This document shows, piece after piece, positions 45,471 through 64,000 of a DNA stretch of 64,000 bases. The number at the start of each line of letters is the position of its first letter. Within the stretch, counting starts at the first letter, position 1. The DNA comes from an uncultured Acidobacteriota bacterium (lineage in GTDB: Bacteria; Acidobacteriota; UBA6911; RPQK01; JAPXNP01), in contig CAVZRV010000011.1 of NCBI GenBank assembly GCA_963777605.1, positions 352,001 to 416,000 on the forward strand, in the 5' to 3' direction. The notes under the pieces were generated by a model. That model was given only the letters and a program-made list of their open reading frames with translations. It made no database searches and was not told the origin of the DNA. The position numbers were made by a program, and so were the translations under genes.

Positions 45471-46579
45471 TCTATCACCTCCTCTACTCGCTTCACGAGC
45501 AGATATCGGTCCTGAATGTCGTCCGCTACATCACCTTCCGGACGGCCTATGCTTCCCTCACTGCGCTCCTGATCAGCATGTGGATGGGACCCTGGATGAT
45601 CGCCAAGCTTCGGGAATTCAAAATCGGACAGTTTATCCGCGAGGAGGGCCCCGAAAATCACCAGGCAAAAGCCGGGACTCCAACGATGGGCGGAATCCTG
45701 ATTATTTTCAGCGTCGTGATACCAACTCTGCTCTGGGCCGACCTGACCAACCTCTATGTCTGGATCGCACTCACTTCCCTGCTCTTCTTCGGCGCGGTGG
45801 GATTCGCCGACGACTACCTCAAGATCAGTCGAAAGCGGTCCCTGGGGCTGAGGGGCTGGGAGAAGATCGCCATGCAGGTCCTCTTCTCACTCGCCATCGC
45901 TGCACTGCTGATCTACCTAAACCGGATCAACCTCTATTCCGTGGAGTTGAGTGTCCCCTTCTTCAAACGGTTTACACCGGAACTCGACCTCGTCATTCTG
46001 GGAGTTTCCACCTTTATTCCTCTGATCCTCTTCGTGGCCCTGGTTATCATCGGAAGCAGCAACGCGGTCAACATAACTGATGGGCTCGACGGGCTGGCCG
46101 GCGGCCTCGTCGTGATTGCAGCCTCGTCGCTGACGATCCTCACCTACATCACGGGTCATGCCACCTTTGCCACTTATCTCGGCCTGATCAAGAACACCTA
46201 TGCCAGTGAGTTGACCATCTTCTGCGGGGCGATGGTCGGAGCGACGATGGGGTTCCTCTGGTACAACTGCTATCCCGCCGAGGTCTTCATGGGCGACGTG
46301 GGAGCGATGGGACTGGGAGGAGCGATCGGTACGGTCGCGATCCTGATCAAACAGGAACTTCTCCTCTTCTCCATCGGAGGGATCTTCGTCATTGAGGCAC
46401 TTTCGGTGATCGTGCAGGTCGCGTCATTCAAACTCCGGGGGAAGCGGGTACTGCTCATGGCTCCCCTGCACCACCATTTCGAGAAGCTCGGCTGGGCCGA
46501 GCCGAAAGTCGTGATCCGGTTCTGGATCATAGGGCTGATATTTGCACTGTTTAGTTTGACGACCTTGAAGATTCGATGA
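45467..46579 (+). CDS. mraY: Phospho-N-acetylmuramoyl-pentapeptide transferase
   Basis: [32 protein letters not shown] and MAPLHHHFE. Confidence 0.96.
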
Positions 46580-46629
46580 TTTGTGCACTATCGAAAGCCG
46601 GCGACGTCCGGCTCACAAAAGACAGCTTG

Positions 46630-48006: not shown

Positions 48007-49157
48007 TCAGGCGAATGCCCTACGATCGCATCCTGATTCTCAGCGTGCTGACCTTGTCCGCGATCGGACTGGTTATCCTGTTCAGCGCCTCATCGGTGAT
48101 CTCCCGCGAGCTCTACGGCTCTTCGACAGCGATCTTCACCAAGCAGCTGTACGCGGTTCTTCTCGGGCTCGGCCTGATGTTCCTGGCCATGCGGCTCGAT
48201 TACAGAACTTACCAGAATCGATACATCCTGGCCGCACTGCTGGCGGTCGCAATCGCCCTGCTCGGCTGGGCTCTGGCCAGTCCGGACGTAAACGGAGTCC
48301 ATCGCTGGGTCCGAATCGGACCCATGCGCTTTCAGCCCTCCGAGATTGCCAAGCTCGGAGTTATCTTGGTCACCTCCTATTACCTGGTGGCAGCGGGCGG
48401 CCAAATTCGGGATTTCGAGAAACGGATGCTCTGGTATTTCGCGCCCCTCGGCGTAATGATGCTGCTGGTCCTGATGGAGCCTGATTTCGGCACCACGACG
48501 AGCCTGGCTTTCACCCTCGCCCTGCTCTTTTTCATAGCCGGCCTGCCCTGGCGGTATTACTTTGGAGCGCTGCTCCTGGCAGCCCCCGGGTTCTACTTCC
48601 TGATCTACCGGGTTCCCTACCGGTGGAATCGCCTGCTCGCGTTCTGGGACCCGGAAGCCGATCCGCACGGGTCGGGGTACCAGATCCTCCAGAGCCTGAT
48701 CGCCGTCGGATCAGGCGGGCTCGGCGGGAAAGGCCTCGCCCAAAGCACCCAGAAACTCTTCTTCCTTCCCGAGGCTCAGACCGATTTCATTTTTGCGGTA
48801 CTTGCGGAAGAGCTCGGAATTTGGGGATCCACGATCGTTCTCCTGCTCTTCCTGGTCGTGCTTTGGCGCGGTATCCGAATCAGCCTGCGGGCGAACACGC
48901 TATTCGGGACCTACGTGGGGCTGGGAATCGTCTGCATGATCGTCTTCCAGGCCCTCTTCAACATCAGCGTGGTATTGAGCATTTGCCCAACCAAGGGAAT
49001 CCCCCTCCCCTTCATCTCCGCCGGCGGTTCATCGGTACTCGTCATGTTGATTTCAGTCGGGATCCTGCTGAATATTTCGCGGAATTCAGCGGTGCAGTTC
49101 CCCGGAACGATCAACCAACCCTCGGCTGCGGGGAACGACGGAGAACGCATCGGATGA
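48003..49157 (+). CDS. ftsW: SEDS peptidoglycan polymerase FtsW
   Basis: RW...FQPSEIAK, EPDFGT, GYQ, LPEAQTDFIF and KGIPLPFISAGGSS. Confidence 0.95.
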   Translation: MIRRMPYDRILILSVLTLSAIGLVILFSASSVISRELYGSSTAIFTKQLYAVLLGLGLMFLAMRLDYRTYQNRYILAALLAVAIALLGWALASPDVNGVHRWVRIGPMRFQPSEIAKLGVILVTSYYLVAAGGQIRDFEKRMLWYFAPLGVMMLLVLMEPDFGTTTSLAFTLALLFFIAGLPWRYYFGALLLAAPGFYFLIYRVPYRWNRLLAFWDPEADPHGSGYQILQSLIAVGSGGLGGKGLAQSTQKLFFLPEAQTDFIFAVLAEELGIWGSTIVLLLFLVVLWRGIRISLRANTLFGTYVGLGIVCMIVFQALFNISVVLSICPTKGIPLPFISAGGSSVLVMLISVGILLNISRNSAVQFPGTINQPSAAGNDGERIG

Positions 49158-50245
49158 ACGGAACGGCACAATCAAGACTGGAGAGAGTTCTCTTTGCCGG
49201 CGGCGGCACCGGAGGACACCTCTACATGGCCATCGCGGTCGCCCGAACGCTCCAGGCCGCCAACCCTGCGACCCAGTTTCTCTTCGTGGGGACTCCCGAA
49301 GGACTGGAGGCCCGAATCGTGCCTCAGCAGGGATTCCTGCTCGAGACCATTCACGTTGGGGGACTCAAGAACGTGGGGATTCGCCGGCTGGTTCGGACCG
49401 CCGTCCAGTTGCCGCTCAGTCTCGTCCATTCGCTGCGCATCGTTTCCCGTTTCCGACCCGATGCGGTTCTCGGAGTGGGTGGTTATGCTTCGGGCCCGGT
49501 CGTCCTGGCGGCATTTCTTCGCCGCATTCCCAGCGTAATTATTGAACCCAACGTGGAACCAGGACTGGCAAACCGACTCCTGCGCCCGCTTGTCGATCGG
49601 ATTGCAGTGGCATTCAAAGAGACCGCGGCCCGTTTTGGAGTCAAGGCCCGGATCACCGGGGTACCGATTCGGGAGGAATTCTTCAGGGTTCGCGAGCACG
49701 CCTTCGACGCCGATCGGCTGACAGTCCTGATTTTCGGGGGAAGCCGGGGAAGCCGGCCGCTCAACCAGCTCGTTTCAGCATCGCTTCCCCAACTTGCGGG
49801 GCACCCGGTTCACCTGATTCACCAGACCGGTCCGGACGACTACGAGACCGTCCGGGAAACCTATCGGGAAGTCGATATCTCCGCCGAGATCCTCCCCTAC
49901 ATTGACGATATGCCGGCCTGTTTCAACCGTGCCGACCTGATTGTTTCACGCTCGGGAGCATCGACGGTAGCCGAGATTACCGCAGCCGGACGACCGGCCC
50001 TGCTGGTTCCCTTCCCGCACGCCGCGGACGACCACCAGACCAAGAATGCCCGAGCCCTGGAAAGCAGGGGCGCCGCTATCGTGATGGTTCAGAAGGAAAC
50101 GACTGGGGAAACTCTGGCCGCAAAAGTCTCGGAACTGGTCCGCGACCGGGCTCAGCTGGGCCGAATGGCGGCCGCTGCCCGAGAAGCCAATCGCCCGGGT
50201 GCCGCCGGCGCCGTAATACGACTGCTCGAGGAGGCAGCTGCTTGA
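49154..50245 (+). CDS. murG: Lipid I GlcNAc transferase MurG
   Basis: GGGTGGH, GGYASGP, FGGSRGS, SRSGAST and HQTKNA. Confidence 0.95.
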   Translation: MNGTAQSRLERVLFAGGGTGGHLYMAIAVARTLQAANPATQFLFVGTPEGLEARIVPQQGFLLETIHVGGLKNVGIRRLVRTAVQLPLSLVHSLRIVSRFRPDAVLGVGGYASGPVVLAAFLRRIPSVIIEPNVEPGLANRLLRPLVDRIAVAFKETAARFGVKARITGVPIREEFFRVREHAFDADRLTVLIFGGSRGSRPLNQLVSASLPQLAGHPVHLIHQTGPDDYETVRETYREVDISAEILPYIDDMPACFNRADLIVSRSGASTVAEITAAGRPALLVPFPHAADDHQTKNARALESRGAAIVMVQKETTGETLAAKVSELVRDRAQLGRMAAAAREANRPGAAGAVIRLLEEAAA

Positions 50246-50247
50246 TG

Positions 50248-50368
50248 AGAGGTTCGATGAGGTCACGTTTCGAACACTGCAAGGTTTTAGGCTCCCGGCC
50301 ACGCCAAGCCGACCCTACCCAAAAGCACCCTTGCCGCTGGATCGATCAGGTGACCTCATCCAACCTCT
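50248..50368. repeat. 121-bp fold-back (MITE/REPIN-like or structured RNA) element between murG and murC
   Basis: Terminal inverted repeats AGAGGTTCGATGAGGTCAC and GTGACCTCATCCAACCTCT (18/19). Nested internal pairings GCAAGG/CCTTGC, TAGG/CCTA and CGGC/GCCG. Confidence 0.65.
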
Positions 50369-50407
50369 TTCTGCAGCATCGTGGAATCGACTGGTGAGCG
50401 CATGAGA

Positions 50408-51775
50408 ATGCTGAACGAACTTGGAAACTGCAGGCACTTCCACTTCGTCGGAATCGGCGGCGGGGGGATGAGTGCACTTGCCCGGCTCCTGCTTCAGCAA
50501 GGGCACGTGGTGAGCGGCTCCGACCTGCATCCGGGCTCGACGTCCAAGGCCCTCGAAACCTTGGGAGCAAACGTTTTCCAGGGGCATGACGCCGGGAACC
50601 TGAGGGACTCCGAAGTGCTCGTCTACTCGTCGGCGATCCGCGAGGGGAACCCGGAGTTGGTCGAGGCGAAACGGCTCGGTCTCCCCGTCATCCATCGCTC
50701 CGAGCTCCTCGTCGAGCTGATGCGCTATCGAAAGGGCATCGCAGTCGCGGGATGCCATGGAAAGTCAACGACGGCCGCAATGATCGGCTACGTGTTGCGC
50801 CGTGCCGGTCTTGATCCCACGATCGCGCTCGGCGCACGCCCTCTCTACCTCGAAGCCAATTCCGAGTTCGGCTCCGGGGACTGTTTCGTTGCCGAGGCGG
50901 ACGAAAGTGATCGCAGTTTCCTCAGGTTCCGACCGGAGTACCCTGTCGTGACCAACATCGACCTGGATCACACCGACACCTATCGCAGCCTCGCCGAGGT
51001 GCAGGACGCCTTCTCCCAGTTCCTCTCGAAGACTCCTTTCTACGGGCAAGCGGTTGCCTGCTGGGACAGCATTCCGCTCCGGGAAGTCCTGCGAAATGTT
51101 CACCGCCGGGTGGTAACGTACGGCTTGAGTGAAGGGGCGGATCATCGGATTTCGGAGATCCGGGAGACGTCGTCCGGCTCGTGTTTCGCGCTGGGTTTTG
51201 GAGGGGAACCCCCGGTACGGATCAGCCTTCGGTTGGGCGGCATTCACAACGTGCTCAATGCAGCCGCAACCGCCTGTCTGGCCGGAATCCTGCGGGTACA
51301 GCCTTCCGTCATCCAGAGCGCGCTGGCCGAGTTTTCCGGGGTAGAACGACGCATGGAGTTCAAGGGTGAAAGCCGGGGGGTGTTGGTCATGGACGATTAC
51401 GCTCACCACCCTGCTGAGATCAGGGCAACAATCGAGGCCTGCCAAGTTCACGATCGGAGGCTCGTAGTCGTTTTTCAGCCCCATCGCTTCTCGCGGACAG
51501 CCAGCCTGATGGACGACTTCGCCCGCAGTTTCGATCGTGCCGGCCAACTCTTTTTGATGAATGTGTACCCGGCCGGAGAAGAACCGATTCCGGGAGTGTC
51601 TTCACAGCGCCTCGCTCGCCTGATTCCTGCTCACCTGTCGGCTGAGTGGATCTCGTCCGGCGCCAAGATGGTTGACCGACTGGAGGCGGAGTGCCGGCCC
51701 GGCGACCTGCTGCTGACGATGGGCGCAGGTGATGTCTGGAAGATTGGAGAAGAGTTCCTTGAAAGAAGCCACTAA
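50408..51775 (+). CDS. murC: UDP-MurNAc--L-alanine ligase
   Basis: HFVGIGGGGMS, GCHGKSTT, EADESD, NIDLDH, DDYAHHP and FQPHR. Start 50402 or 50408. Confidence 0.95.
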   Translation: MLNELGNCRHFHFVGIGGGGMSALARLLLQQGHVVSGSDLHPGSTSKALETLGANVFQGHDAGNLRDSEVLVYSSAIREGNPELVEAKRLGLPVIHRSELLVELMRYRKGIAVAGCHGKSTTAAMIGYVLRRAGLDPTIALGARPLYLEANSEFGSGDCFVAEADESDRSFLRFRPEYPVVTNIDLDHTDTYRSLAEVQDAFSQFLSKTPFYGQAVACWDSIPLREVLRNVHRRVVTYGLSEGADHRISEIRETSSGSCFALGFGGEPPVRISLRLGGIHNVLNAAATACLAGILRVQPSVIQSALAEFSGVERRMEFKGESRGVLVMDDYAHHPAEIRATIEACQVHDRRLVVVFQPHRFSRTASLMDDFARSFDRAGQLFLMNVYPAGEEPIPGVSSQRLARLIPAHLSAEWISSGAKMVDRLEAECRPGDLLLTMGAGDVWKIGEEFLERSH

Positions 51776-52568
51776 GCGGGACAAGCGCCGATTGTCGACC
51801 TGGCTTGGCCGGGCAGCCAAGGCCCTGCTTGGTTTAGGCGCAGTCGTGGTCGCCGTCTGTCTCCTCTATTACGGAAACAGCTACGTGCGTTCCGACAACC
51901 ACTTCCAACTGCAGGCCATCGAATATCAGGGTGCCAACCGTTTCGACGCCGAAGCCTTTAACCGGCTCCTGCTGCGCACGTTCGGGCGCAATCTCCTGGT
52001 CATGGACCTGGAGAAAGTGCGTTCTTTGCTCGAGAGTGGAACCTGGGTCAAGGAAGCGACGGTTCGACGACGACTCCCCGACCGGCTGTATCTCTACATC
52101 ACGGAACGGGAACCCGTGGCGGTCGCCGCCATCGACAATGACCTTTACGTTGTCGATGAGGAAGGGGTCATCCTGGCACCATTCGGACCCGACTACTCCT
52201 ATCTCGACCGGCCCATCATCAAGGGACTCAAGAACACGGCCCGGGAGAACGCGCTCTCAGAAAACCAGCGTGGCGTCCGAGCCTACCTTAAACTTCTGCA
52301 GGATTTCGAGGCAGATGGGGCGGACTATTCGAGCCGGATCTCCGAGGTTGACGTGAGTGACCCCGAGCGGGTTGCCGTCATTTCGCTGGATGATTCCGTG
52401 CCCATCTTTTTGGGGAAGAACGGTTTTGCGCGCCGCTTCGAACGGTTCCTTTCACAACGGGCGCTGTACGAAAAGCTCAAACAGAAATACGGGCTCATCG
52501 AGTACGTTGACGTCACGTACGAAAACAAGATTATTTTTCACACGCCGCAACAGGGGGGCGCCGGTTAA
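51759..52568 (+). CDS. ftsQ: Cell division protein FtsQ/DivIB
   Basis: TM, POTRA (WVKEATVRRRLPD...EREP) and C-terminal YVDVTY. Directly before ftsA. Confidence 0.88.
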   Translation: MKEATKRDKRRLSTWLGRAAKALLGLGAVVVAVCLLYYGNSYVRSDNHFQLQAIEYQGANRFDAEAFNRLLLRTFGRNLLVMDLEKVRSLLESGTWVKEATVRRRLPDRLYLYITEREPVAVAAIDNDLYVVDEEGVILAPFGPDYSYLDRPIIKGLKNTARENALSENQRGVRAYLKLLQDFEADGADYSSRISEVDVSDPERVAVISLDDSVPIFLGKNGFARRFERFLSQRALYEKLKQKYGLIEYVDVTYENKIIFHTPQQGGAG

Positions 52569-52633
52569 CTCGGGGGAAGTTCCGCCGGCCTGAACTAGCA
52601 GGAAGGGCTAGCGACGGAAGTCAAATTGTAGAT

Positions 52634-53872
52634 ATGGCAAAGAAACGAATAGTTGCCGGGATCGATGTCGGCACAACGAAAATATGTTCCTGCATCGCAG
52701 AAATCTCCGACTCGCAGGTCGAGATCACCGGCGTGGGATGGTCCCCGTCGAAAGGATTAAAAAAGGGTATCGTCGTCAACCTCTCGGAAACCATCCGGAG
52801 CGTCCGGGAATCGCTCGTGGCCGCGGAAGAAGAAGCCGGGACGGTGGTCGAGTCGGCCTTTGTGAGTGCCGGCGGAAGGTTTCTGCGCAGCGCCAACACG
52901 GCAGCCCAGACCGACGTTCGGGGCAAGAACGGAAGGGTGGCAGCGGACGACATCAGCCGAGCCGTGCTTGCGGCCCAGGATGTTGAACTGCCTTCCGACT
53001 ACCAGGTCATTCACGTCCTGACCCAGGGCTTTTCCCTGGATGAGCAGGAGGGAATCTTCGATCCCCTCGGGATGAGCGGAAATCGGCTGGCCGTCAGGCT
53101 GCACCTGGTTTTCAATGCCACCGCCGTGGTTCAGAACATCGTCAACGCCATCAACAAGGCGGACGTGGTCGTGAAAGGCGTCGTGATGCAACAACTGGCG
53201 TCGGCCGAGGCGGTACTGACCGATGACGAGAAGGAACTGGGAACGGTGGTCATCGACATCGGGGGGGGCACAACCGACATTTCGGTTTACAGCAACGGCT
53301 GCATCTGGCACTCCGAGGTCCTGCCCATGGGTGGCAGCCTCATTACGAAGGATATCGCCATCGGACTGCGTTCTCCCCTGCAGGAGGCGGAACGCCTCAA
53401 GATCGAACTTGGCACGGTCTACCCGGACACGGTCCCCGAAGAGGAACGGATCGAGTTCAGCGAAATGGGAAGCGGGAAGTCTCAGAGCTACTCCCGGCGG
53501 CTACTCTGTCAGATCGTCGAGGCAAGATGCGTAGAGATCCTGGAGGCGACGCAAGAGGTTCTCGGGCGGGCCGGGGTTCAAATGGACCTGATCAGTGGAG
53601 TTGTTCTGACGGGAGGCGGGGCCATGATGCACGGATTCGTGGAGCGGGCGCAGGAACTTTTCCAGGCCCCTGTCCGTCTCGGCATACCGGTTTCTTTTGA
53701 GAGCCGGAACGAGGCGGTCTTTCATCCCGCCTACTCTACGGCTCTAGGTCTCCTCCGATACGCGCAAACCGTGCGCGACACCGACATGGCAAAAGTTGCC
53801 CGGGCCATGGGCCCCAGTCGCCCCAAAGCAGCGACGGAGAGGCTGAAGAACTGGATTTTTGAAAGAATCTGA
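52634..53872 (+). CDS. ftsA: Cell division protein FtsA
   Basis: GIDVGTTK, DIGGGTT, AERLK, VLTGGGA and C-terminal amphipathic LKNWIF. Confidence 0.96.
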   Translation: MAKKRIVAGIDVGTTKICSCIAEISDSQVEITGVGWSPSKGLKKGIVVNLSETIRSVRESLVAAEEEAGTVVESAFVSAGGRFLRSANTAAQTDVRGKNGRVAADDISRAVLAAQDVELPSDYQVIHVLTQGFSLDEQEGIFDPLGMSGNRLAVRLHLVFNATAVVQNIVNAINKADVVVKGVVMQQLASAEAVLTDDEKELGTVVIDIGGGTTDISVYSNGCIWHSEVLPMGGSLITKDIAIGLRSPLQEAERLKIELGTVYPDTVPEEERIEFSEMGSGKSQSYSRRLLCQIVEARCVEILEATQEVLGRAGVQMDLISGVVLTGGGAMMHGFVERAQELFQAPVRLGIPVSFESRNEAVFHPAYSTALGLLRYAQTVRDTDMAKVARAMGPSRPKAATERLKNWIFERI

Positions 53873-53947
53873 TACGGATTGACATCGGCACGCCCCGGTC
53901 CGGCACGCGGAATCCGGGACCGGGCCAGTGACCGCATGGAGGTTGAT

Positions 53948-55102
53948 ATGGGTGGAAACAATCACGATGATCGAATTATTAAACTCTCCTTCGAGGAAAA
54001 ACCGATCACCGGCGCAGCGATCAAGGTTATCGGCGTCGGTGGCGGCGGCTGCAATGCCGTCAACCGGATGATCGAGGCCGGTATCGAGGGGGTGGAATTC
54101 ATCACAGCCAACACCGATGTTCAGGCGTTGAGGCAGTCACACGCTCCGCGAAAGCTGCAGATCGGCGAGAAGTTGACCAAGGGGCTCGGGGTCGGCTCCG
54201 ATCCGGAGCTGGGCCGGCAGGCTGCTCTGGAGGACACCGAAAAAATCATCGAACTTCTCGATGGGGCGGACATGGTGTTTGTCACCGCCGGACTCGGGGG
54301 AGGCACCGGGACCGGCGCATCTCCCATCGTGGCGAGCCTGGCCACCGAACTCGGCGCCCTCACCGTAGCCGTCGTCACCACCCCGTTCCACTTCGAGGGA
54401 AAACGCCGGCGCAATCAGGCCGTTCGAGGGCTCGATGAACTTCGGGAGAGTTCCGACACGGTGATCACGATCCCCAACGAGCGCCTGCTCAACACGGTCC
54501 CTGCGGGAACTTCTCTTTTCGAGGCGTTCAAGTTCGCCGACGACGTTCTCCGGCAGGCCGTCCAGGGCATAAGCGACCTGATCACGGTCCCGGGCGTCAT
54601 TAACCTCGACTTCGCGGATGTGAAGACGATCATGTCGGGTATGGGACTCGCCCTGATGGGCACCGGCATCGCCGACGGCGACGATCGTGCTGTCAACGCC
54701 GCCCGGCGCGCGATCTCCAGCCCGTTGCTGGAGGACACGAGGATCCAGGGGGCGAAAGGTGTCCTGATCAACATTACCGGAAGTTCCCGCATGACGCTGC
54801 ACGAAGTCAGCGAAGCCAGCCGGATCGTCCAGGAGGCCGCCCATCAGGATGCCCACATCATCTTCGGGTCGGTCTGCGACGAAGAGATTGGAGACCAGAT
54901 AAAGATTACCGTCATCGCAACCGGCTTCGAGGATGACGAACCGGAACAGGTCGCTGAAGAAGTCGTTGCCCCGGGAATCGTGCGCCCCGAGAAGATGGAC
55001 TTCCGGCCCAACCTGTCGGAGGAAACGTTCGGCAACGGGAAACGCACCCCCGAACCCGACGTACTCGAAATCCCAACGTTTCTCCGTCGACAACTCGACT
55101 AA
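53948..55102 (+). CDS. ftsZ: Cell division protein FtsZ
   Basis: [22 protein letters not shown] and C-terminal [17 protein letters not shown]. Confidence 0.98.
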
Positions 55103-55175
55103 AGGGCCCAGGAGGACCGCCGGGTCTCGCATTCCTTCTCCCGACCACCCATAATGTCGGGGGGAGACTGACGAC

Positions 55176-56177
55176 ATGATTCTTGCTGGTGATGTAGGTG
55201 GTACCAAGTGTATTCTCTCGGTATTCGAGAGAAAGGACGGAAAGCTTCACGGGATCTGCGACGAGTCCCTTCCCAGCCGGGAGTTCCGTTCCCTCGAAGC
55301 GGTAGTTGAACGCTTCCTGGAACTTCCCTCGGCACGCCAATTCAAGGACCGCATCACGTCCTCCTGTTTCGGGATCGCAGGCCCGGTATTCCAGGGTCGG
55401 GTGGCAACCACCAACCTGCCCTGGGAGATCACCGTCGAGAACCTTGAGAAGGCCAGCGGAATCCCCTGGGTGCACCTCATCAACGACCTTGAGGCAGCGG
55501 GCTACGGGATCGCCGAACTGGGAGCCGCTGACCAGGTTCGCCTCAACAGCGCCGAGAGTGTCGCCAATGCGCCGCGGGTCCTGATCGCGGCCGGGACCGG
55601 ACTGGGCGAAGGACTCCTCGTCTGTCACGAAGACGGACGTTATCACCCGATCTCCTCCGAAGGCGGCCACTGCGATTTTGCTCCCCGCAATACCCTGGAG
55701 ATCGGACTGCTCGAGTACCTGCACGAGTCATGGTCTCATGTCAGCTATGAACGCGTGCTCTCCGGGCCAGGGCTCTACAACATCTACCGCTACCTCCGTC
55801 ACATCGGCCGCCCTGAGTCATCCGAGATTTCGAGCCGGATCGAATCGGCCGAGGATCCCAGCGCCCAGGTTTCCGAACTGGCGCTGTCGTCCCGCTCCGA
55901 GACCTGCCGCGAGGCACTGCGCCTTTTCGTGTCTGTTTACGGTGCCGAAGCCGGGAACCTGGCGTTGAAGGCCAAGGCCCTGGGTGGAGTTTTCGTGGGC
56001 GGAGGTATCGCCCCCAAGATCAGGCCGATGATCGAAGAGGGCGGATTCATGGACGCGTTCCTGGACAAAGGGCGGATGCGGCCGCTGCTCGAGTCGATAC
56101 CCGTCACGCTCGTACTGAACAGCAGGATGGCCCTGATTGGAGCGGCCTCCTGTGCCGCCATGCATGAGGAGAGTTAG
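55176..56177 (+). CDS. glk: Glucokinase (E. coli Glk type)
   Basis: GDVGGTK, GIAGPV, INDLEA, GTGLGE, SEGGH, ERVLSGPG and GGGIAPK. Confidence 0.92.
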   Translation: MILAGDVGGTKCILSVFERKDGKLHGICDESLPSREFRSLEAVVERFLELPSARQFKDRITSSCFGIAGPVFQGRVATTNLPWEITVENLEKASGIPWVHLINDLEAAGYGIAELGAADQVRLNSAESVANAPRVLIAAGTGLGEGLLVCHEDGRYHPISSEGGHCDFAPRNTLEIGLLEYLHESWSHVSYERVLSGPGLYNIYRYLRHIGRPESSEISSRIESAEDPSAQVSELALSSRSETCREALRLFVSVYGAEAGNLALKAKALGGVFVGGGIAPKIRPMIEEGGFMDAFLDKGRMRPLLESIPVTLVLNSRMALIGAASCAAMHEES

Positions 56178-56204
56178 CCCGCCTTCCTCGCCAAGGTCCG
56201 AAGC

Positions 56205-56326
56205 GGGGCGGTGGAGAGGCAGATGGATGCGAGGAGTGCGACAAAGGCCCCCGCAGGCGTACTTGACGGTACGTCGAGTGGGACAAGGCGCGGCAACGCC
56301 GCGGACGCCTGTCTATCCGCCGCCGC
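56205..56326 (+). repeat. ~120-nt structured intergenic repeat or RNA-like element
   Basis: Imperfect terminal inverted arms (14/18, two of the mismatches being G-U compatible). Core hairpin GGCGTAC-TTGACG-GTACGTC, flanked by GCGAGGAG...GCAACGCCGC. Confidence 0.5.
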
Positions 56327-56481
56327 AGGAGCCTCGTGAGAAATGCGAGTTGGGTCCCGTCGCCTACACCGGTCGCTGCCTCGAGCCGGTGACTGAAAGG
56401 TGGACGCTATGGGGCGTTGTCGTGCTAAGATTTTGCAAAATTTCCGGATCACGAGGCTGTCTCCAACGAATGCGAGCGCGT

Positions 56482-59400
56482 ATGTCCAAGAAATTCATCT
56501 GCGCTTTCCTGCTGTCTCTGCAACTGCTGACCATTCCCTGCTGGGCGCAGGATCCCGCCGGGCGATTGATCGCCGTTCGGGGCCGGGTTGAAATCGGGCC
56601 GAACTGGGCCGCCGCGGTTCTCAACCAGGACCTGTTCGAAGGCAGCGAGATCCGGACTTTCCAGCAGAGTCGCGCAGTTCTGCTCCTGGCCGATGAGACT
56701 CAGCTGAAGCTGAACGCCAACACTTCACTGGTGCTCCAGTCGGCCAACCGCTCGAGCAGCCTCATCAGCCGGATTTCGGCAGCCGGCGCCCGCTCCGAGC
56801 AAAGCATCATGAATCTCCGCTCGGGGCAACTCTACGTCCGCTCGAAGAAAACCCCGGCCAGTGTCCGGGTGGACACCCCGGCTGTGACGGCCGCCATCCG
56901 CGGGACCGAATTCGACGTTCAGGTAGCACCGGACGGCGAGACGCGCACGACGGTGCTGGAAGGCTCGATCGACTATCACAACGACTACGGCGCCATCCAG
57001 GTCAATTCGGGTGAACAGGGCATTGCGAGGATCGGTGAAGCCCCGACAAAAATCGTCATCGTGAACCCGCAAGACGCCGTCCAGTGGACCTTCTTCTACA
57101 CAGCGGCAGTCAGCCCCAGGGACTACCCCTTCATTCAGCGTTCACCGGCCGCTGCCCGGACCGACCTCCAGGGAACGATCGCCGACCCTGTCCGCCGAGC
57201 CATGCTGCTGCACGACGCTGGACAACCGGACGAAGCTCTTCAGGCGCTGGAAGGAGTCTCTAGCCCTGAGGCTCACGTGGTTCGGGGCTGGCTTCTGCTC
57301 GAGAAGCACCAGTTGATGGAGGCCGAGAAAGAGTTCGATGCGGCCCCGTCCGACCTGGAACGCACCCGGCTTGGCAAGTCGCTGATTTTCCTTCGCTCCG
57401 ACCAATATGAAAATGCCTTGAAGGCGGTCGAACCGACCGGCGACGATTCAGGACTCCTGTTTCAGAAAGCCCTCGTGTTGACCGTAACGGGAGGCATCAC
57501 CGAGGCCATGCCGATCCTGGACGACCTCGCCCACCGGGACGGCTGGGCGGCGCTCGCCCAGAGCCTCAAGGCGACAATCCTGGTCGGCCGGAATTCCAAG
57601 GAGGAGGCCCTGGCAGCGGCCCGTGCGGCCCTGCAGTCCGATCCCAGCTCTCCCTCGGCACGCGTCGGGCTGAGTCGGGTCCTGCAGGCCTTCTTCGAGC
57701 TTCCCCAGGCCCGGAGCGAGGCCTCGCAGGCCCTGGAACTCGACCCGAACTTCATCGACGCCCAGGCCCAGTACGCGAAACTTCTGTTCGGGTTCGGGTT
57801 GACCGGGGAAGCCGAGAAAATCATCCAGCGTTCGCTCCAGGAGAACCCCGACGACGCCCAGATGAATTCGCTGCTGGGTTTCATCCTGCTTGCCCGTGCC
57901 GACACCTCCGAGGCGATCACGCGCTTCCAGCATGCTGTCGCTCTCGACAGCACGCTCGCTGATCCTCATCTCGGGCTCGGCCTTGCACTGATGCGCCGGA
58001 ACCGCCCCGACGACGCGGCCGCGGAGTTCCTCTCCGCCGCCACACTCGAACCGCGACTGTCTATCTACTACAGCTACCTGGCCAAGGCCTTTTACGAACT
58101 TCGCCAGTTCGAGCAGGCATTCACGTCCCTCCAGACCGCCGAGGAACTGGATCCCCGGGATCCAACACCGCACTTGTATTCGGGCATCTTCCTCGACGAT
58201 CTGAACCGGCCCGGAGCTGCGGTCTCGGCCTACCAGGATTCCATCCGACTGAATGACAACCGGGCCGTCTACCGCAGCCGGCTGATTCTCGATCAGGACC
58301 TGGCCTCCCGGAATATCAGCCTGGCCCGTGCCTACAACCGCCTCGGCCTGACCGAATGGGGAAACAGCGAGGCCGTCCTTTCCGTCCTCAACGATCCGAC
58401 CAACAGTTCGGCGCACCTTTTTCTCGGCAATACGTTCCTGGCCCTGCCGGGTCGGACGCTGGCCGGCGGCTCCGAATCGCTGCTGAATCGCCTGCTCCTC
58501 CCGGTTAACGCGAATGCGTTCAACGCCTTCAACGACTACACGACGCTCTTTGAACTTCCGCGGGCATACTGGACGGCTGAGGGGCGATACGGGAGCTTCG
58601 ACGCGTTCGGCGGCACCTTCACGGCCAGCGGTGGAACCAGCCGGTTGGCTTACCGGTCGACGACCACCTACGACCGCACCGCGGGTTTCCGTCCGGTCAA
58701 CGATGACGCCAAGGACTGGACCAGCTACAACTACCTCAAGATGGCGCTCACCCAGGGCACGGACCTGCTGCTCAGCTATTCCTATGGTCAGGACAAGAGC
58801 GGTGACCAGGGCAGCCCGGTTCTGGTCAACGAATTCAACGACCCTAACCTGCGCAACTACAGCCGCAGCCACCGCGGAGAAATTGGGGTTCACCACCGGT
58901 TTCGTCCGGGCTCAGACCTGGTCGCCATCTTCTCGGCGCGGTCGTTCGACCAGGTCAGCGACGATCCCGACAAGATTCAGCGTCCCTACATCACTTATGG
59001 ACTTCGCACATCCACCAAAGTTCCCGACGTGGATTTCCAGATCAGCCACCTGCTCAACGTTGGACGCTTCAGCTTCCGGTACGGCGCGGACGTATACGAG
59101 GGTCGCTCGCGAACTCTCGCCACCGTCTTTTACTTCTTCCCGGGCGACGACCAGCTCTACACCCAGGAGTACGACTTCAACCGGTACAAGGTGAGGACCA
59201 AGACCCTCTTCGCGAACACCGATTACCGGCTGCGTCCGGACCTGATTCTCTCGGCAGGGATCAACTACGCCTGGCTGAACGACAACAACCGCCTGGACAA
59301 CGTTCAGAAGCCCGACTCCTATTGGAATCCCCAGGCCGGAGTGCTCTACTCGCCGTTCGAAACCACCAAGCTCAGGTTCGCCTTTTTCCAGAACCTGCAA

Positions 59401-60009
59401 ACCCAGCGAGCGGAAAGCCTGGTCCCGGCCCAGTTGATGGGCTTTCCGATCCTTCAGAATGAGTCCTCGGGCTCTCGGGGAACCGCCTACAACCTCGGAT
59501 GGGATCAGAACATTGGGCGTAATGCGTTCTTTCGGAACCAGATCTACTGGAAAGACCGAAAGCTGCAGCCTTTCGACTTCGCCACCGGGTCCACGGTGGT
59601 ATTCGACGGGAAGCTCTATGGGGGCCGATCAACGATCGAGTACCTGATGTTCGAAACGCTCTCTCTCGTCGGCGATTACGGGATCACCCACAGCCTCGAC
59701 CTTTCTTCGCTGCGTCACGATCATGAGGTGAACGCTTCCCTCACCTGGGTTCAGCCCTGGGGACTCTACGTCACCCTGAACGAGAATTACCTTCGCCAGA
59801 CCGGGGAACTGGGCGACCTGAGAACCAAGGTCAAGGTCTTCACAACGGCGGTCAGCGCATCGTGGGAAATGCCCCGCAAGGTCGGGCTCGTCCAACTGAT
59901 CGCCTCGAACATTTTCGACCGCCGCTACGAGTTTCTGGCCGATCCGGAAGCCCTTGAGACCCGGATTCCCGCTCGCAACGTCCGGCTGCGACTTCGGTTC
60001 AACTTCTAG
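56482..60009 (+). CDS. FecR-domain + TPR + C-terminal outer-membrane beta-barrel receptor-like protein (NsrA-like architecture), 1175 aa
   Basis: Signal peptide MSKKFICAFLL...CWAQD. FecR motifs (IRT...RAVLLLAD, VDTPAVTAAIRGTEF), a long TPR array and AVYRSRLILDQDLA. Aromatic beta-strands ending RLRFNF. Confidence 0.8.
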   Translation: MSKKFICAFLLSLQLLTIPCWAQDPAGRLIAVRGRVEIGPNWAAAVLNQDLFEGSEIRTFQQSRAVLLLADETQLKLNANTSLVLQSANRSSSLISRISAAGARSEQSIMNLRSGQLYVRSKKTPASVRVDTPAVTAAIRGTEFDVQVAPDGETRTTVLEGSIDYHNDYGAIQVNSGEQGIARIGEAPTKIVIVNPQDAVQWTFFYTAAVSPRDYPFIQRSPAAARTDLQGTIADPVRRAMLLHDAGQPDEALQALEGVSSPEAHVVRGWLLLEKHQLMEAEKEFDAAPSDLERTRLGKSLIFLRSDQYENALKAVEPTGDDSGLLFQKALVLTVTGGITEAMPILDDLAHRDGWAALAQSLKATILVGRNSKEEALAAARAALQSDPSSPSARVGLSRVLQAFFELPQARSEASQALELDPNFIDAQAQYAKLLFGFGLTGEAEKIIQRSLQENPDDAQMNSLLGFILLARADTSEAITRFQHAVALDSTLADPHLGLGLALMRRNRPDDAAAEFLSAATLEPRLSIYYSYLAKAFYELRQFEQAFTSLQTAEELDPRDPTPHLYSGIFLDDLNRPGAAVSAYQDSIRLNDNRAVYRSRLILDQDLASRNISLARAYNRLGLTEWGNSEAVLSVLNDPTNSSAHLFLGNTFLALPGRTLAGGSESLLNRLLLPVNANAFNAFNDYTTLFELPRAYWTAEGRYGSFDAFGGTFTASGGTSRLAYRSTTTYDRTAGFRPVNDDAKDWTSYNYLKMALTQGTDLLLSYSYGQDKSGDQGSPVLVNEFNDPNLRNYSRSHRGEIGVHHRFRPGSDLVAIFSARSFDQVSDDPDKIQRPYITYGLRTSTKVPDVDFQISHLLNVGRFSFRYGADVYEGRSRTLATVFYFFPGDDQLYTQEYDFNRYKVRTKTLFANTDYRLRPDLILSAGINYAWLNDNNRLDNVQKPDSYWNPQAGVLYSPFETTKLRFAFFQNLQTQRAESLVPAQLMGFPILQNESSGSRGTAYNLGWDQNIGRNAFFRNQIYWKDRKLQPFDFATGSTVVFDGKLYGGRSTIEYLMFETLSLVGDYGITHSLDLSSLRHDHEVNASLTWVQPWGLYVTLNENYLRQTGELGDLRTKVKVFTTAVSASWEMPRKVGLVQLIASNIFDRRYEFLADPEALETRIPARNVRLRLRFNF

Positions 60010-60079
60010 GAGCGCTGATGATGATCGATGGCCACATTCCGGCCCGCTTCCCCTTGTCACGACGCGAGAGGGGGCAACG

Positions 60080-62107
60080 GTGAGCAAGAATGTCAAAGAG
60101 GTCCTGGCCTCAGCGGTCATCCTGGTTTTCTCACTGGCGGCAGTCGCGCTCCTGTCCAAGTACACCCCGTATCTGGAAAGCCTGGAACTGCGCAACTACG
60201 ACTTTCTGATGGCGGTCATCCGGGGGCCCCTGACTCCTCCCGACAACATTGTCGTCGTCGCCGTCGATGAGGCCTCGGATACTGAGTTCGACGACTCGCT
60301 GGGTTTCCACTGGCCCTATCCTCGAGGCGTCCACGGCGAACTCGTGGACGCGCTGAACGCGGCCGGAGTCAAGATCGTCATTTTCGACGTTGCGTTCATC
60401 GGCGAAAGCGGAGACAAGAACGAGGACCAGATGTTCGCGGGGGCCCTCCAGCGATCCAAAGTTCCTGTTGTGATTGCGGCCTCGATCGACGTCGTGGAGG
60501 ACCCTCGATTTTCGATGGTCCAGGAGGTTCTCCCGTACGCGCTATTCACCGATGCAGGAGCCAGGATTGGGTTTGCGACACTGAATCCCGACAGCGACGG
60601 TGTCATCCGTCACGCACGCCTTACGGTGGGGCTCCAGGCCACGCTCACGACCGAGGCGCTGGCGTTGATGGGTACCCCGGTTGACCCGGCCACGCTTCCG
60701 ATCGCCGAGTACGAAGGGGACGATCCCGAAATCCTGGTGAACTACGTGGGTGGAAGCAGAACCGTCCCGACCGTCAGCTACTACCAGGCACTGGATCCCG
60801 ACCAGTACCTTCCTCCGGACTTCCTCAAAGACAAGATCGTCTATATCGGGCGCTCGCTCGCGGTGGCTGACCTTTCGTCCGGAGGGCAAGACCACTACCC
60901 GTCTCCGTTCGACACCTTGTCTGGGCTGACCACCATGCCGGGCGTCGAGATCCACGCCAACCTGATGAACACGCTACTGACCCACGACTACATCCACCAG
61001 GTGGCCACCAGCATCCAGTGGGTCATCATCATTTCGCTCGGCCTGCTGGTTTGCCTGGCAGTGCTGATCACGGACAAGTTCTCGCTCAAGATCATTTTCT
61101 CCCTGATTGCGATATTCGGGTACATGGCGATCGTGGCGGTCCTCTTCGTCTTCGCCGGAATCTGGCTCTACGCGGTGCAACCGGTCACCCTGATGGTCAC
61201 CGTCTTCGGTTTGAACACCCTCTACCAGTACCGGCTCCACGAGAAGGAGCGAGCACACATCCGCAAAGCGCTCTCGGGGTACGTCTCAAAGCAGGTCATG
61301 GGCGAAATCCTCAAGAACCCCGACCAGTTGGAACTTGGAGGAGTGCAGGTCGAGGCGACGGTTCTCTTTTCCGACATCGCCGGTTTCTCCAAGATCTCCG
61401 AGAAGATCACTCCGCGGGAACTCGCCACTCTGCTCAATGACTACTTCACCAAGATGGGCGACATCATCATGTCCCGGGACGGCATGATCAACAAGTACAT
61501 CGGCGATGCCGTGATGGCGATCTGGAATGCCCCGCTTCCCAATGCAGACCATGCCCGGCTGGCCTGCCAGGCCGCCCTGGAGATGAGACGTGCCGTCGCC
61601 GACATGTACCCCCTGCGGATGCGGATCGGGATCAATACGGGCCAGATGGTCGCCGGCAACCTGGGTCACCGGGAAAGGATGGAGTACACCGTGATCGGCG
61701 ATGCCGTCAACCTGGCCTCACGTCTCGAAGGTGCCAACAAGCCTTTCGGGACGGTGGTCCTCATCAGTGACACCACAGAAGCGCTGGTCAGAGACAGCTT
61801 CCTGCTGCGACGGGTGGACCGGATTCGGGTAATCGGCAAACAGCACCCTGTCGAGATCTTCGAGGTATTGGCGGAACGGCACAAGCTCGTCCCCGACGAG
61901 ACTCTGTCGATGCTCGAATCGTTCAATCGAATCATCAAGACCTATGATTCACGGGACTGGCCTGAAGCCTGCCGGCTCTGCCAGGCTCACTCGAACGAGT
62001 TTCCGGGTGACCTGGTCGCAGAGGCCTACCTGAAGCGGTGCCGGAAGTTCGCCGACCAACCCCCGGAAGCCGACTGGGACGGGGTCTACGCACTCGAGTC
62101 AAAGTAG
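60080..62107 (+). CDS. CHASE2-domain class III adenylate cyclase with C-terminal TPR-like tail
   Basis: TM, CHASE2 (VVVAVDE, WPYPR, DSDGVIR, MPGVEIHAN) and 3 TM. Cyclase motifs FSDIAGFS, NKYIGD and YTVIGDAVNLASRLEG. Tail ends WDGVYALESK. Confidence 0.92.
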   Translation: MSKNVKEVLASAVILVFSLAAVALLSKYTPYLESLELRNYDFLMAVIRGPLTPPDNIVVVAVDEASDTEFDDSLGFHWPYPRGVHGELVDALNAAGVKIVIFDVAFIGESGDKNEDQMFAGALQRSKVPVVIAASIDVVEDPRFSMVQEVLPYALFTDAGARIGFATLNPDSDGVIRHARLTVGLQATLTTEALALMGTPVDPATLPIAEYEGDDPEILVNYVGGSRTVPTVSYYQALDPDQYLPPDFLKDKIVYIGRSLAVADLSSGGQDHYPSPFDTLSGLTTMPGVEIHANLMNTLLTHDYIHQVATSIQWVIIISLGLLVCLAVLITDKFSLKIIFSLIAIFGYMAIVAVLFVFAGIWLYAVQPVTLMVTVFGLNTLYQYRLHEKERAHIRKALSGYVSKQVMGEILKNPDQLELGGVQVEATVLFSDIAGFSKISEKITPRELATLLNDYFTKMGDIIMSRDGMINKYIGDAVMAIWNAPLPNADHARLACQAALEMRRAVADMYPLRMRIGINTGQMVAGNLGHRERMEYTVIGDAVNLASRLEGANKPFGTVVLISDTTEALVRDSFLLRRVDRIRVIGKQHPVEIFEVLAERHKLVPDETLSMLESFNRIIKTYDSRDWPEACRLCQAHSNEFPGDLVAEAYLKRCRKFADQPPEADWDGVYALESK

Positions 62108-62120
62108 AGGGGGCCAACCA

Positions 62121-62156
62121 GTCCGGCAGGTCGGACAAGTCAGACCAGTCTGACTA
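62121..62156. repeat. 9-bp tandem GTCnGACnn repeat forming two small hairpins between the convergent cyclases
   Basis: GTCCGGCAG GTCGGACAA GTCAGACCA GTCTGACTA. AGTCAGAC/GTCTGACT is a perfect inverted pair. Confidence 0.55.
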
Positions 62157-62159
62157 CCC

Positions 62160-64000
62160 TCAGAGCTTCCCGTCGATCCGGACTCCAACGATCTTCACGG
62201 GCTTGGTCTTCCCTTTGACCAGGACATCACCGAGTTCCTCGAAGTCATAGCTGCCCTGCAGTCGGCTGCGGGTGAATTCGCTGATGATCATCCGACACTT
62301 GTATTCCTTGCAGAGCGACTCCAGGCGCGACCCCAGGTTGACGTTGTCGCCGATTACGGTGTAGCTGCGAATCGACTCGGCACCAACATTCCCGGCAATC
62401 ATCTCTCCCGTGTTGATCCCGACGCCGGAAGCCAGTGGCGGCAACCCCCGCTCAGCCCAGCCCACGTTCAATTCGGCGAGGCGCTTCTGCATCGCGATTC
62501 CACACTGCACCGCGTGGTCGGCGTGCATTGGATCGGAAAGCGGCGCGTTGAACAGGGCCATGATCATGTCCCCGACAAACTTGTCCACCGTTCCCTGGTG
62601 AGCGAAGACGATATCGACCATCGCCGAGAAGTACTCGTTGAGAAGAGTGACAATTTCTTCAGGAGACCGGCTCTCGGACAGGGTAGTAAACCCCCTGATA
62701 TCGGAGAACAGAACCGTAACCGTCATCCGCTGCCCGCCCAGGCGGGCGGCCTCCGGGTCGTTCATGAGCTGGTCAAACACGTCCCGCGAAACATAGCGGG
62801 AGAAAATCCCCTTTACCTGCCGCTTCTCGGCGCCTTCGACCCAGTACTGGTAGGCCAGGCCGGAGCCGAGAGCCAGACTCCAGCACAGGATCGCCGCCGC
62901 AACTGGCAACCGGTAATGGTGGGCTTCGAACAGGTACTGGGCCAGCCAGAGATAGCCCCCCAGAAGAACCATACTCACGGGACCGGCGAAAGCCAGCCTC
63001 AGGTAGAAAACAAATACCACGACCAGCAACGTCACCAGCAGCCCGAGAAACCAGTTCAGCCAGCCGGGCGGGTCTACCAGGTACCGGTCGTGGAGCAGAT
63101 CGTCGAGAACGTTGGCGTGGACCTCGACACCCGGCATTTTGCCAAGCTGGCCCCCTTCTCCCCCTTCGTTTGACTCCTCGGCCGACCCGGAGTAGGGAGT
63201 CGTGAACATGTCGTAAAGCCCCGTGGCATTCACACCGACAAAGACAATCTTGTCCTTGAACTCAGCCGGGTCGAGGCCCGGCGACTCACCTGCGTCAATC
63301 TGCAACTGCGAATAGACGACGTGGCTGTAGCTGAAAGAGGGGTAGGTACCGGGTCCGCCGTTGAACCAGATCGGAAGGCGCCAGTCGGAATTCAGCGGAA
63401 TCCGGCTGGACGCGGCCGTCACGCTCTGATCGGCGATCCGGAAATCGGTCGGTTCCTTCGACTGGAGAGCCAGGTAGCCTGCCAGCGCCAGCGACGGGAA
63501 CACGCGACCGTTGGCCCATCCGACAACCAGGTAGTGCCGGAAGGGACCGTCTGAGTCGAGCGCGTTCGCCGCGTGCCCGATCGCCTTGGCAGCCTCGGCG
63601 AGCGCCGGGTAGGGGAGGTCGATCTGGATGAAGGGAAGGCCGGGTGCCTCACCGGGTTGCGAAAACCGGTCCAGCACAGCTGAATCCTCGGGATTCTCGA
63701 CTGCGGTGTTGTCCTGATCTCCGAGAAACACGGCATGCACCACCCGTCCACATTCTGCGGTTTCCGTTGCGAAATAGGCATCGCCGTCGGGGTCGCTCAG
63801 GTTCTCTTCTGTGAAAAGCACGTCGTAAATGACGAGCCGGGCACCCGCTTCCTTCATGAACTTCAGGAAGAGGCCGTGCACCTCCCGACTCCACGGCCAG
63901 CGCCCGAAAGCCGGTTCAAGATGTTTGATACTATTGTCATCAATTTCGGCAAGCACGATGTCGGGGGAGGCGGAATCCTGTTTCCCCAGAATCCGGAATC
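62160..64000 (-). CDS. Second CHASE2-domain class III adenylate cyclase (5' end outside window)
   Basis: Frame is open to the window edge. GRWPWSR, DSDGPFR, MPGVEVHAN and 3 TM. FSDIRGFT, DKFVGD and YTVIGDNVNLGSRLES. Confidence 0.92.
   Translation of the reverse strand, partial: FRILGKQDSASPDIVLAEIDDNSIKHLEPAFGRWPWSREVHGLFLKFMKEAGARLVIYDVLFTEENLSDPDGDAYFATETAECGRVVHAVFLGDQDNTAVENPEDSAVLDRFSQPGEAPGLPFIQIDLPYPALAEAAKAIGHAANALDSDGPFRHYLVVGWANGRVFPSLALAGYLALQSKEPTDFRIADQSVTAASSRIPLNSDWRLPIWFNGGPGTYPSFSYSHVVYSQLQIDAGESPGLDPAEFKDKIVFVGVNATGLYDMFTTPYSGSAEESNEGGEGGQLGKMPGVEVHANVLDDLLHDRYLVDPPGWLNWFLGLLVTLLVVVFVFYLRLAFAGPVSMVLLGGYLWLAQYLFEAHHYRLPVAAAILCWSLALGSGLAYQYWVEGAEKRQVKGIFSRYVSRDVFDQLMNDPEAARLGGQRMTVTVLFSDIRGFTTLSESRSPEEIVTLLNEYFSAMVDIVFAHQGTVDKFVGDMIMALFNAPLSDPMHADHAVQCGIAMQKRLAELNVGWAERGLPPLASGVGINTGEMIAGNVGAESIRSYTVIGDNVNLGSRLESLCKEYKCRMIISEFTRSRLQGSYDFEELGDVLVKGKTKPVKIVGVRIDGKL

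Follow-up and report, generated by a model that had tools for sequence, protein, structure and literature searches.

Which system is encoded where a gene for an exported protein with a FecR domain, a tetratricopeptide repeat (TPR) array and a C-terminal beta-barrel is directly followed by a gene for a CHASE2-type adenylate cyclase? This question is raised by the end of a stretch of 64,000 nucleotides (the window) from the genome of an uncultured Acidobacteriota bacterium (contig CAVZRV010000011.1, positions 352,001 to 416,000). A preliminary description of this DNA had proposed a trans-envelope cyclic AMP (cAMP) signalling system, had likened it to NsrA and CyaK of Sinorhizobium meliloti, and had rated it as the best candidate for an undescribed system in the window. 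As judged from sequence comparisons, the locus is a distant counterpart of nsrA-cyaK with the same gene order, and the genes are true homologues, because the homology to NsrA extends from end to end, NsrA and the 1175-residue protein are reciprocal best matches, and the cyclase is clearly identifiable as CyaK-like. We consider it probable that the locus encodes an envelope-spanning signalling pair of the NsrA/CyaK type, composed of a barrel, a TPR-FecR arm and a CHASE2 cyclase.

A tblastn comparison of the 1175-residue protein with plasmid sequences yielded 106 records, mostly megaplasmids of Sinorhizobium and Ensifer; one of the matching genes is annotated as nsrA and is followed by cyaK. With NsrA (1200 residues), BLASTP gave an E-value of 3e-36 for residues 10-562 plus a weak colinear match of the C-terminal part. 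The alignment of a 75-sequence family profile with NsrA by means of hhalign comprised 1082 columns (residues 30-1170 versus 30-1183; probability 100, E 5.3e-57). When NsrA was compared with the genome that contains the window, the NsrA-like gene was the top match (E 4.6e-31), and all others were TPR-only matches from 1e-7. Each protein is thus the best match of the other in the plasmid and own-genome searches, and no second full-length NsrA-like copy was found in this genome. The gene product of cyc1, the cyclase gene behind the NsrA-like gene, is 34% identical to CyaK along its full length (E 2e-91). The two loci further share the length class of the first protein, its Pfam composition (FecR, TPR and an unassigned C-terminal half) and the position of a CHASE2 class III cyclase gene immediately downstream on the same strand. 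The likeness therefore goes beyond the analogy drawn initially. In contrast, the term "undescribed" was wrong, because the pair belongs, as a distant member, to the NsrA-CyaK type known from genetics, and clustering of FecR and CHASE2 is already in print for Campylobacterota and Burkholderia.

The reading frame, Pfam, hydropathy and structure prediction agree on the FecR-TPR-barrel architecture that had been described. The only hydropathy peak of the protein is an N-terminal signal-like segment, and its C-terminus, LRLRFNF, ends in Phe; the protein is presumably exported, with the barrel located in the outer membrane. FecR was matched at residues 56-163 (PF04773, E 2.2e-15), many TPR families were matched between residues ~237 and 620, and no Pfam family was matched between residues 620 and 1175. 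An AlphaFold2 (AF2) model, for which the 75-sequence family alignment served as input, had a pLDDT of 89.5 and a pTM of 0.85. It consists of a beta-sandwich (residues 27-192), 27 helices forming ~13 TPR-like hairpins (222-672), a 21-residue coil, and 22 strands (694-1174), which are mostly predicted with a pLDDT above 90. Turns of 2-5 residues connect the strands on one side of the barrel, and the loops on the opposite side reach up to 26 residues. These putative surface loops comprise 112 residues altogether, with a net excess of acidic ones (19 D/E versus 8 K/R).

The family profile matches the barrel parts of YncD (E 1.1e-15), PqqU and PiuA, and in YncD the match is restricted to chain residues 166-668. 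All top Foldseek matches of the model are TonB-dependent transporters (E ~1e-16, target TM-score 0.5-0.6), and VIA-align superposed 390-487 residues on solved structures of such transporters with Z-scores of 20-22.5. Plug (PF07715) and STN domains were not matched by Pfam in the 1175-residue protein at E-values up to 0.01. The model also leaves no space for a plug, as only TPR helices and the 21-residue coil lie between FecR and the first strand. The barrel is accordingly predicted to be of the 22-strand TonB-dependent-transporter type without a plug domain. The family profile and the predicted structure are the basis of this assignment, because the barrel alone is not recognized in sequence searches with Pfam or the PDB; in PDB sequences, no match was found at E-values up to 1.

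The conservation of each segment was determined as the share of columns that are at least 90% conserved among the 75 homologues. This share is highest in the junction coil (48%, 10 of 21 columns), followed by the TPRs between residues 546 and 672 (31%, 40 of 127) and by FecR (21%, 38 of 182), and is lowest in the barrel (7%). By this measure, sequence constraint is concentrated in the putative periplasmic arm and not in the barrel.

The start codon of cyc1, a GTG at position 60080, is located six bases after the presumed ribosome-binding site GAGAGGGGG and 70 bp behind the NsrA-like gene. Matches to both CHASE2 and Guanylate_cyc confirm the class of the cyclase, and its gene lies on the same strand as the NsrA-like gene, both as stated in the preliminary description. 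The CHASE2 domain is flanked by hydrophobic segments, which comprise residues 8-26 on one side and a block at ~312-356 and beyond on the other, as deduced from hydropathy. A comparison of 30 homologues shows conservation of residues D432, K472, D476, D541, N544 and R548, which may be those responsible for metal binding and ATP specificity.

The linkage of the two genes was studied in the wider family. A word-indexed search with the barrel-bearing region found 119 proteins; according to the resulting table, 108 of them carry FecR and 32 have a precomputed PF00593 assignment. Among 1.84 billion sequences, the region matched 920 cluster representatives at E-values up to 1e-3 (352 at 1e-10, 67 at 1e-30), most of which are 1000-1260 residues long and are matched at their C-terminal end. 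In a species-level genome collection, relatives are encoded in at least 596 stretches, and the best 80 of these loci were used for a neighbourhood survey. They belong to Acidobacteriota, Desulfobacterota, Nitrosomonas and Nitrosospira, Methylococcales, other Gamma- and Betaproteobacteria, Rhodospirillales, a spirochaete, and others; among the matches listed, the closest related loci are all from Acidobacteriota, which supports an acidobacterial origin of the window. The six-frame open reading frames (ORFs) of the 80 loci were scanned with a small hidden Markov model (HMM) deduced from five CHASE2 regions. A CHASE2 gene was present within 2.5 kb in 53 of the 80 loci, and in 37 of the 46 that offer at least 2.5 kb on both sides. 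Of these 37 genes, 35 encode a cyclase domain; they are found downstream of the NsrA-like gene in 23 cases and upstream of it in 14, and in 29 cases the two genes share a strand and are no more than 500 bp apart. ORFs with a cyclic nucleotide-binding domain occurred 17 times in the best 80 loci. As judged from these neighbourhoods, the linkage between NsrA-like genes and those for CHASE2 cyclases is conserved in different phyla, as the preliminary description had led one to expect. Because the barrel fold is predicted and the homologues are linked to CHASE2, the computational objections foreseen there do not arise.

How might the pair function? Genetic evidence from S. meliloti shows that signal perception through CyaK needs NsrA (PMC7529298, PMC13001267). 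Together with the conserved linkage and the concentration of constraint in the periplasmic arm, this requirement supports carrying the NsrA model over to the acidobacterial locus. The 22-strand barrel would be embedded in the outer membrane, and the solenoid of ~13 TPRs would extend into the periplasm with the FecR sandwich at its tip; cyc1 would reside in the inner membrane with its CHASE2 domain facing the periplasm. An event at the cell surface would act on the barrel, which, by analogy with NsrA, may be the binding of a cationic protein or peptide by the short, net-acidic loops. The TPR arm would relay this event to the FecR domain, which in turn would act on CHASE2 and raise cAMP synthesis. 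Targets of cAMP may be found among the 13 cyclic nucleotide-binding proteins of the genome, whose top-scoring member is an MscS-type channel encoded 2 kb away, and a phosphodiesterase-like protein of the metallo-beta-lactamase (MBL) fold may degrade the nucleotide. We infer where the two proteins are located and in which direction regulation works, and likewise what the ligand and the output of the pair are. A complex prediction for FecR (residues 24-212) and CHASE2 (residues 27-311) was performed without controls, and its score of 0.01, compared to a mark of 0.32, argues neither for nor against binding.

Several points weigh against this explanation. The contact between the FecR/TPR arm and CHASE2 is one that we infer. 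If the barrel alone is compared with Pfam, PF00593 is matched at an E-value of only 0.67, and a 22-strand barrel without a plug poses the problem of how it is closed. Moreover, the known ligand, the uL2 protein of plants or E. coli, has no obvious meaning for a free-living acidobacterium. Nine of the 46 loci with sufficient flanks lack an adjoining CHASE2 gene, and Pfam found none in the nearest 29 of their 60 flanking ORFs. In favour of the explanation, CHASE2 proteins (2-5 per genome) are encoded at other sites in each of the five of these nine genomes that were searched, compared to 3 of 14 well-known genomes that served as a control. A last point against it is that, viewed from the side of CHASE2, an ORF with a FecR domain lies within 8 kb in just 18 of 48 loci.

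The latter number stems from a phylum sample of 101 genomes, 37 of which contain CHASE2; the window's own genome and the unpublished genome G054 were excluded. To detect FecR, 8 kb on each side of the 49 CHASE2 genes in these 48 loci were scanned with an HMM built from the family's FecR portion. The 18 positive loci contain six full NsrA-like proteins and twelve smaller ones of 230-730 residues. For the other 30 loci, Pfam searches covered the two closest ORFs on either flank, 109 out of 193 in total, and did not find FecR at E-values up to 1e-5; recurrent neighbours are M48 peptidases, MscS channels with a cyclic nucleotide-binding domain, Crp-like regulators and FlgT_N/CsgG-like proteins. 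CHASE2 does therefore not generally need a FecR neighbour; as far as domain searches tell, FecR is a frequent partner of CHASE2 and not an obligatory neighbour. In five loci of family f24 (L151, L152, L157, L159, L162), CHASE2 cyclase genes are flanked by genes for FlgT_N and CsgG/FlgT_C-like lipoproteins and for a Crp-family regulator. The FlgT_N/CsgG-like set may constitute alternative periplasmic or outer-membrane partners of CHASE2.

Two loci with a stand-alone NsrA-like gene have conspicuous neighbours. In Methylomagnum (L093:11403-14867), the gene is followed by a 284-residue ORF of no family and by a HAMP-PAS-GGDEF-EAL protein, a possible alternative receiver. In Nitrosospira multiformis (L060:12090-14453), a 788-residue protein with TIR and TPR domains adjoins the NsrA-like gene.

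Two other explanations are the main rivals. The plug-less barrel could be a regulated channel through which the signal molecule, for instance a peptide or a small protein, enters the periplasm to be bound by CHASE2, while the FecR/TPR part gates or caps the barrel without touching the cyclase. Such a gate would suit a transporter-type barrel devoid of the plug that normally closes it, and CHASE2 is itself described as a family of ligand-sensing domains (Pfam; PMC5192318); the 30 of 48 sampled CHASE2 loci without a FecR neighbour and the genetics of S. meliloti, where NsrA is needed for perception, are compatible with a gate as well. However, conservation is strongest in FecR and the last TPRs and not in the barrel, and small periplasmic FecR proteins without a barrel adjoin CHASE2 genes in the twelve loci mentioned and in the LysM-FecR case of PMC5192318. 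This points to FecR itself as the element working with CHASE2, and we regard the gate as unlikely. Alternatively, the pair could sense the state of the envelope without a specific ligand: a tether between the outer and the inner membrane would report outer-membrane perturbations or the width of the periplasm, caused for example by polycation damage or osmotic changes, as cAMP. Signal 1, the activity that acts via NsrA, can be extracted from plants, yeast and bacteria, and a highly basic protein accounts for it (Sorroche et al. 2020, PMC7529298); the predicted loops of the acidobacterial barrel are short and acidic; the external loops of NsrA are likewise described as acidic (PMC7529298). The genes next to cyc2, the second cyclase gene of the locus, encode a BepA-like M48 peptidase and a cyclic nucleotide-binding MscS channel, which suggest envelope or osmotic functions. 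This explanation is quite unlikely, since specificity has been reported, in that not every basic protein acts as a signal (PMC7529298), and since a related genome carries the M48/MscS module apart from the NsrA-like gene.

The arrangement of N-terminal TPRs and a C-terminal barrel is also that of PgaA and BcsC, and the protein could be a porin which, like these or AlgK/AlgE, exports a polymer or a protein, the cyclase merely being co-regulated. NCBIfam matches to PgaA (E 3.5e-5, 22 bits versus a cut-off of 367) and BcsC (E 7e-5, 21 bits versus 858) are far below the thresholds and confined to the TPR region. Synthase or glycosyltransferase operons do not adjoin the gene, whose neighbours are dcw genes, glucokinase and cyclases. 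Barrels of PgaA and BcsC are of the 16-strand type and not of the 22-strand transporter type, the conserved partner here is a CHASE2 cyclase, and FecR has no counterpart in such porins. Export is therefore very improbable, and this candidate was rejected. The same holds for classical TonB-dependent signalling by FecA-FecR-FecI with partners encoded elsewhere, to which a FecR domain and a transporter-type barrel would both belong. Neither a plug nor an STN domain was found, only helices lie between FecR and the barrel, and FecR is fused to the barrel instead of an inner-membrane anti-sigma factor. Over 16 kb upstream and 14 kb downstream, no genes for TonB, ExbB/D or an extracytoplasmic function (ECF) sigma factor are present. 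This possibility can hardly be correct, which bears out the preliminary description on the absence of these partners from the vicinity and on the distinction from classical signalling.

Beyond the envelope-spanning pair preferred here, outer-membrane barrels with a FecR domain could be general, TonB-independent transducers from the outer to the inner membrane, whose receivers are CHASE2 sensors of any output, i.e. cyclases or histidine kinases. In the NsrA type, a transporter barrel would have lost its plug and gained a TPR-FecR arm that spans the periplasm, and free-living soil bacteria might thereby sense cationic proteins of lysed neighbours and respond with cAMP; this stimulus is suggested because that of NsrA is a free ribosomal protein present in extracts of many organisms. 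We consider this generalization tentative and rather doubtful. If true, it would invert the classical arrangement of cell-surface signalling, in which FecR is an inner-membrane protein.

The NsrA-like gene is located directly behind a complete dcw cluster (ftsI, murE, murF, mraY, murD, ftsW, murG, murC, ftsQ, ftsA, ftsZ) and glucokinase, which occupy positions 40536-56177 of the window. In the gap that separates it from glucokinase, a promoter scan found no sigma-70-like site on the + strand and Rfam no match. For the region 56000-64000, the counts of a promoter and terminator scan did not exceed those of shuffled sequences, and Rfam had no match in 55000-64000 at E-values up to 0.1. The features of the locus are compiled in Table 1.

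Table 1. Features of the NsrA-like locus, in window coordinates; residue numbers refer to the respective protein.
Feature	Position	Strand	Basis
Presumed promoter/leader, gap between glucokinase and NsrA-like gene, 304 bp	56178..56481	+	Position
NsrA-like gene, 1175 aa (signal peptide, FecR, TPR, barrel)	56482..60009	+	ORF, Pfam, AF2, NsrA homology
FecR-type beta-sandwich, residues 24-205	56551..57096	+	Pfam PF04773, AF2
TPR solenoid, residues 222-672, 27 helices	57145..58497	+	Pfam TPR families, AF2
Conserved coil between TPRs and barrel, residues 673-693, PVNANAFNAFNDYTTLFELPR	58498..58560	+	Conservation, AF2 coil
Predicted 22-strand TonB-dependent-transporter-type barrel without plug, residues 694-1175	58561..60006	+	AF2, profile, Foldseek, VIA-align
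cyc1, CyaK-like CHASE2 class III adenylate cyclase, 675 aa	60080..62107	+	Pfam, 34% identity to CyaK, ribosome-binding site and GTG
CHASE2 extracytoplasmic sensor domain of cyc1, residues 22-323	60143..61048	+	PF05226, E 3.8e-45
Class III catalytic domain of cyc1 (Guanylate_cyc), residues 425-589	61352..61846	+	PF00211, E 8.1e-28
cyc2, second CHASE2 class III cyclase	62160..64000	-	Pfam CHASE2 and Guanylate_cyc

The second cyclase, cyc2, converges on cyc1 as had been noted and is 31% identical to it. The full gene encodes 656 residues and starts 130 nt beyond the window, at the equivalent of position 64130; hydropathy indicates one N-terminal segment and a hydrophobic block after CHASE2. Beyond the window, divergent from cyc2, genes for a BepA-like M48 peptidase, the MscS-type channel with a cyclic nucleotide-binding domain (490 residues) and the MBL-fold protein were found. 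The sole full-length NCBIfam match of the latter, which is encoded 5 kb away, is a cyclic-nucleotide-degrading phosphodiesterase (61 bits versus a cut-off of 400), and homologues of its gene are present near NsrA-like genes in three other acidobacterial loci. The module that comprises cyc2 begins in the window at 62160 and spans positions 414160-419629 of the contig C11 (L014:161-5630). The closest relative among the matches listed (L017, 62% identity) has an identical layout from ftsZ to the channel gene, and in a further genome (L133) an NsrA-like gene and both cyclase genes are adjacent as in the window. M48 peptidase genes flank CHASE2 cyclase genes in three more loci (L132, L135, L156). 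In a genome of the same family, however, the channel-M48-cyclase module (L131, no NsrA-like gene) and an NsrA-like/cyclase pair (L138) are located on different contigs. For this reason, cyc2 looks like part of a separate conserved module of a cyclase, an M48 peptidase and a cyclic nucleotide-gated MscS-like channel beside the pair, and not like part of the receptor system to which the preliminary description had assigned it.

The genome contains four CHASE2 genes and four genes with a FecR domain. One of the former, on contig C10 (L015:8084-15247), encodes a CHASE2 histidine kinase and is followed by genes for a sigma-54 response regulator, a DUF5666 protein and a FecR protein of 701 residues. 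According to an AF2 model based on 23 sequences (pLDDT 76.9), this protein consists of a FecR sandwich and a C-terminal all-beta, barrel-like domain that ends in Phe. The barrel comprises the C-terminal 420 residues with a pLDDT of about 90, and TPRs are lacking; the best structural matches, with modest scores, are the barrels of FadL, TodX, CymA and BcsC. The pairing of FecR and CHASE2 thus recurs in this genome with another architecture, in a CHASE2 histidine kinase operon. The fourth CHASE2 gene, on contig C29 (L016:6793-10688), encodes a cyclase and is preceded by a 305-residue ORF of no family (weak TPR_14 match, E 0.0085) and a gene for a response-regulator protein; no FecR gene was seen there, but the contig ends at this site.

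NsrA-CyaK has so far been a rhizobial system tied to legume symbiosis. The two-gene unit now appears in Acidobacteriota, Desulfobacterota, nitrifiers, methanotrophs and others, and as its linkage is conserved across these phyla, the "plant signal receptor" would be one case of a widespread bacterial path that leads from the cell surface to cAMP. The predicted plug-less barrel with its TPR-FecR arm offers a testable model for a signal that would cross the periplasm without TonB, and the findings suggest that CHASE2 domains may listen to a FecR-domain partner. The genetics of NsrA/CyaK and the uL2 signal have already been published (PMC7529298, PMC13001267). Searches of the literature collection used here did not find a description of a plug-less transporter-type barrel or a count of the linkage across phyla, although the original description of NsrA (Garnerone et al. 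2018, J Bacteriol) may cover part of this. Novel are the predicted plug-less barrel class, the breadth of the family, the counts of CHASE2 linkage, the second pairing of a FecR barrel with a CHASE2 kinase, and the separate cyc2 module.

How does the locus compare with other known systems? PgaA and BcsC likewise combine periplasmic TPRs with a C-terminal barrel of the outer membrane in one chain; they belong to another barrel class and lack a FecR domain, and a synthase operon is absent here. With FecA-FecR-FecI, the locus shares a periplasmic domain of the FecR family and a 22-strand transporter-type barrel, by which information would pass inward from the outer membrane to the inner one. In contrast, FecR is here fused via TPRs to the barrel, neither a plug, an STN domain, detectable TonB coupling nor an ECF sigma factor is present, and the output is a CHASE2 cyclase. 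In Campylobacterota, a CHASE2 cyclase is described as clustered with an outer-membrane FecR-domain protein, a TPR protein and a cAMP phosphodiesterase, for which one pathway was proposed (PMC9239204). This composition resembles that of the acidobacterial locus, including the nearby gene for an MBL-fold phosphodiesterase-like protein; according to the description in PMC9239204, however, FecR and TPR are separate proteins, whereas they form one polypeptide with the barrel here. In the "BiofilmReg" operon of Burkholderia, a periplasmic LysM-FecR protein is encoded beside a CHASE2 histidine kinase (PMC5192318). A FecR protein next to a CHASE2 sensor is common to both cases, and the genome studied here has its own operon of a CHASE2 kinase and a FecR barrel; as described in PMC5192318, the output of BiofilmReg is a two-component system, and its FecR protein contains LysM instead of TPRs and a barrel.

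The closest likeness is that to NsrA-CyaK itself, despite an identity to NsrA of only ~26%, a different phylum, and a chromosomal site behind the dcw cluster versus a site on pSymB in S. meliloti. The acidobacterial pair has no plant host, and therefore its ligand and output must differ from those in S. meliloti or be more general. A regulator of the Clr type is not encoded next door, where the nearest cyclic nucleotide-binding protein is the MscS-type channel. Common to both genomes is that one NsrA-like gene is accompanied by several CHASE2 proteins, which in S. meliloti are CyaK and CyaD1/D2 (PMC7529298).

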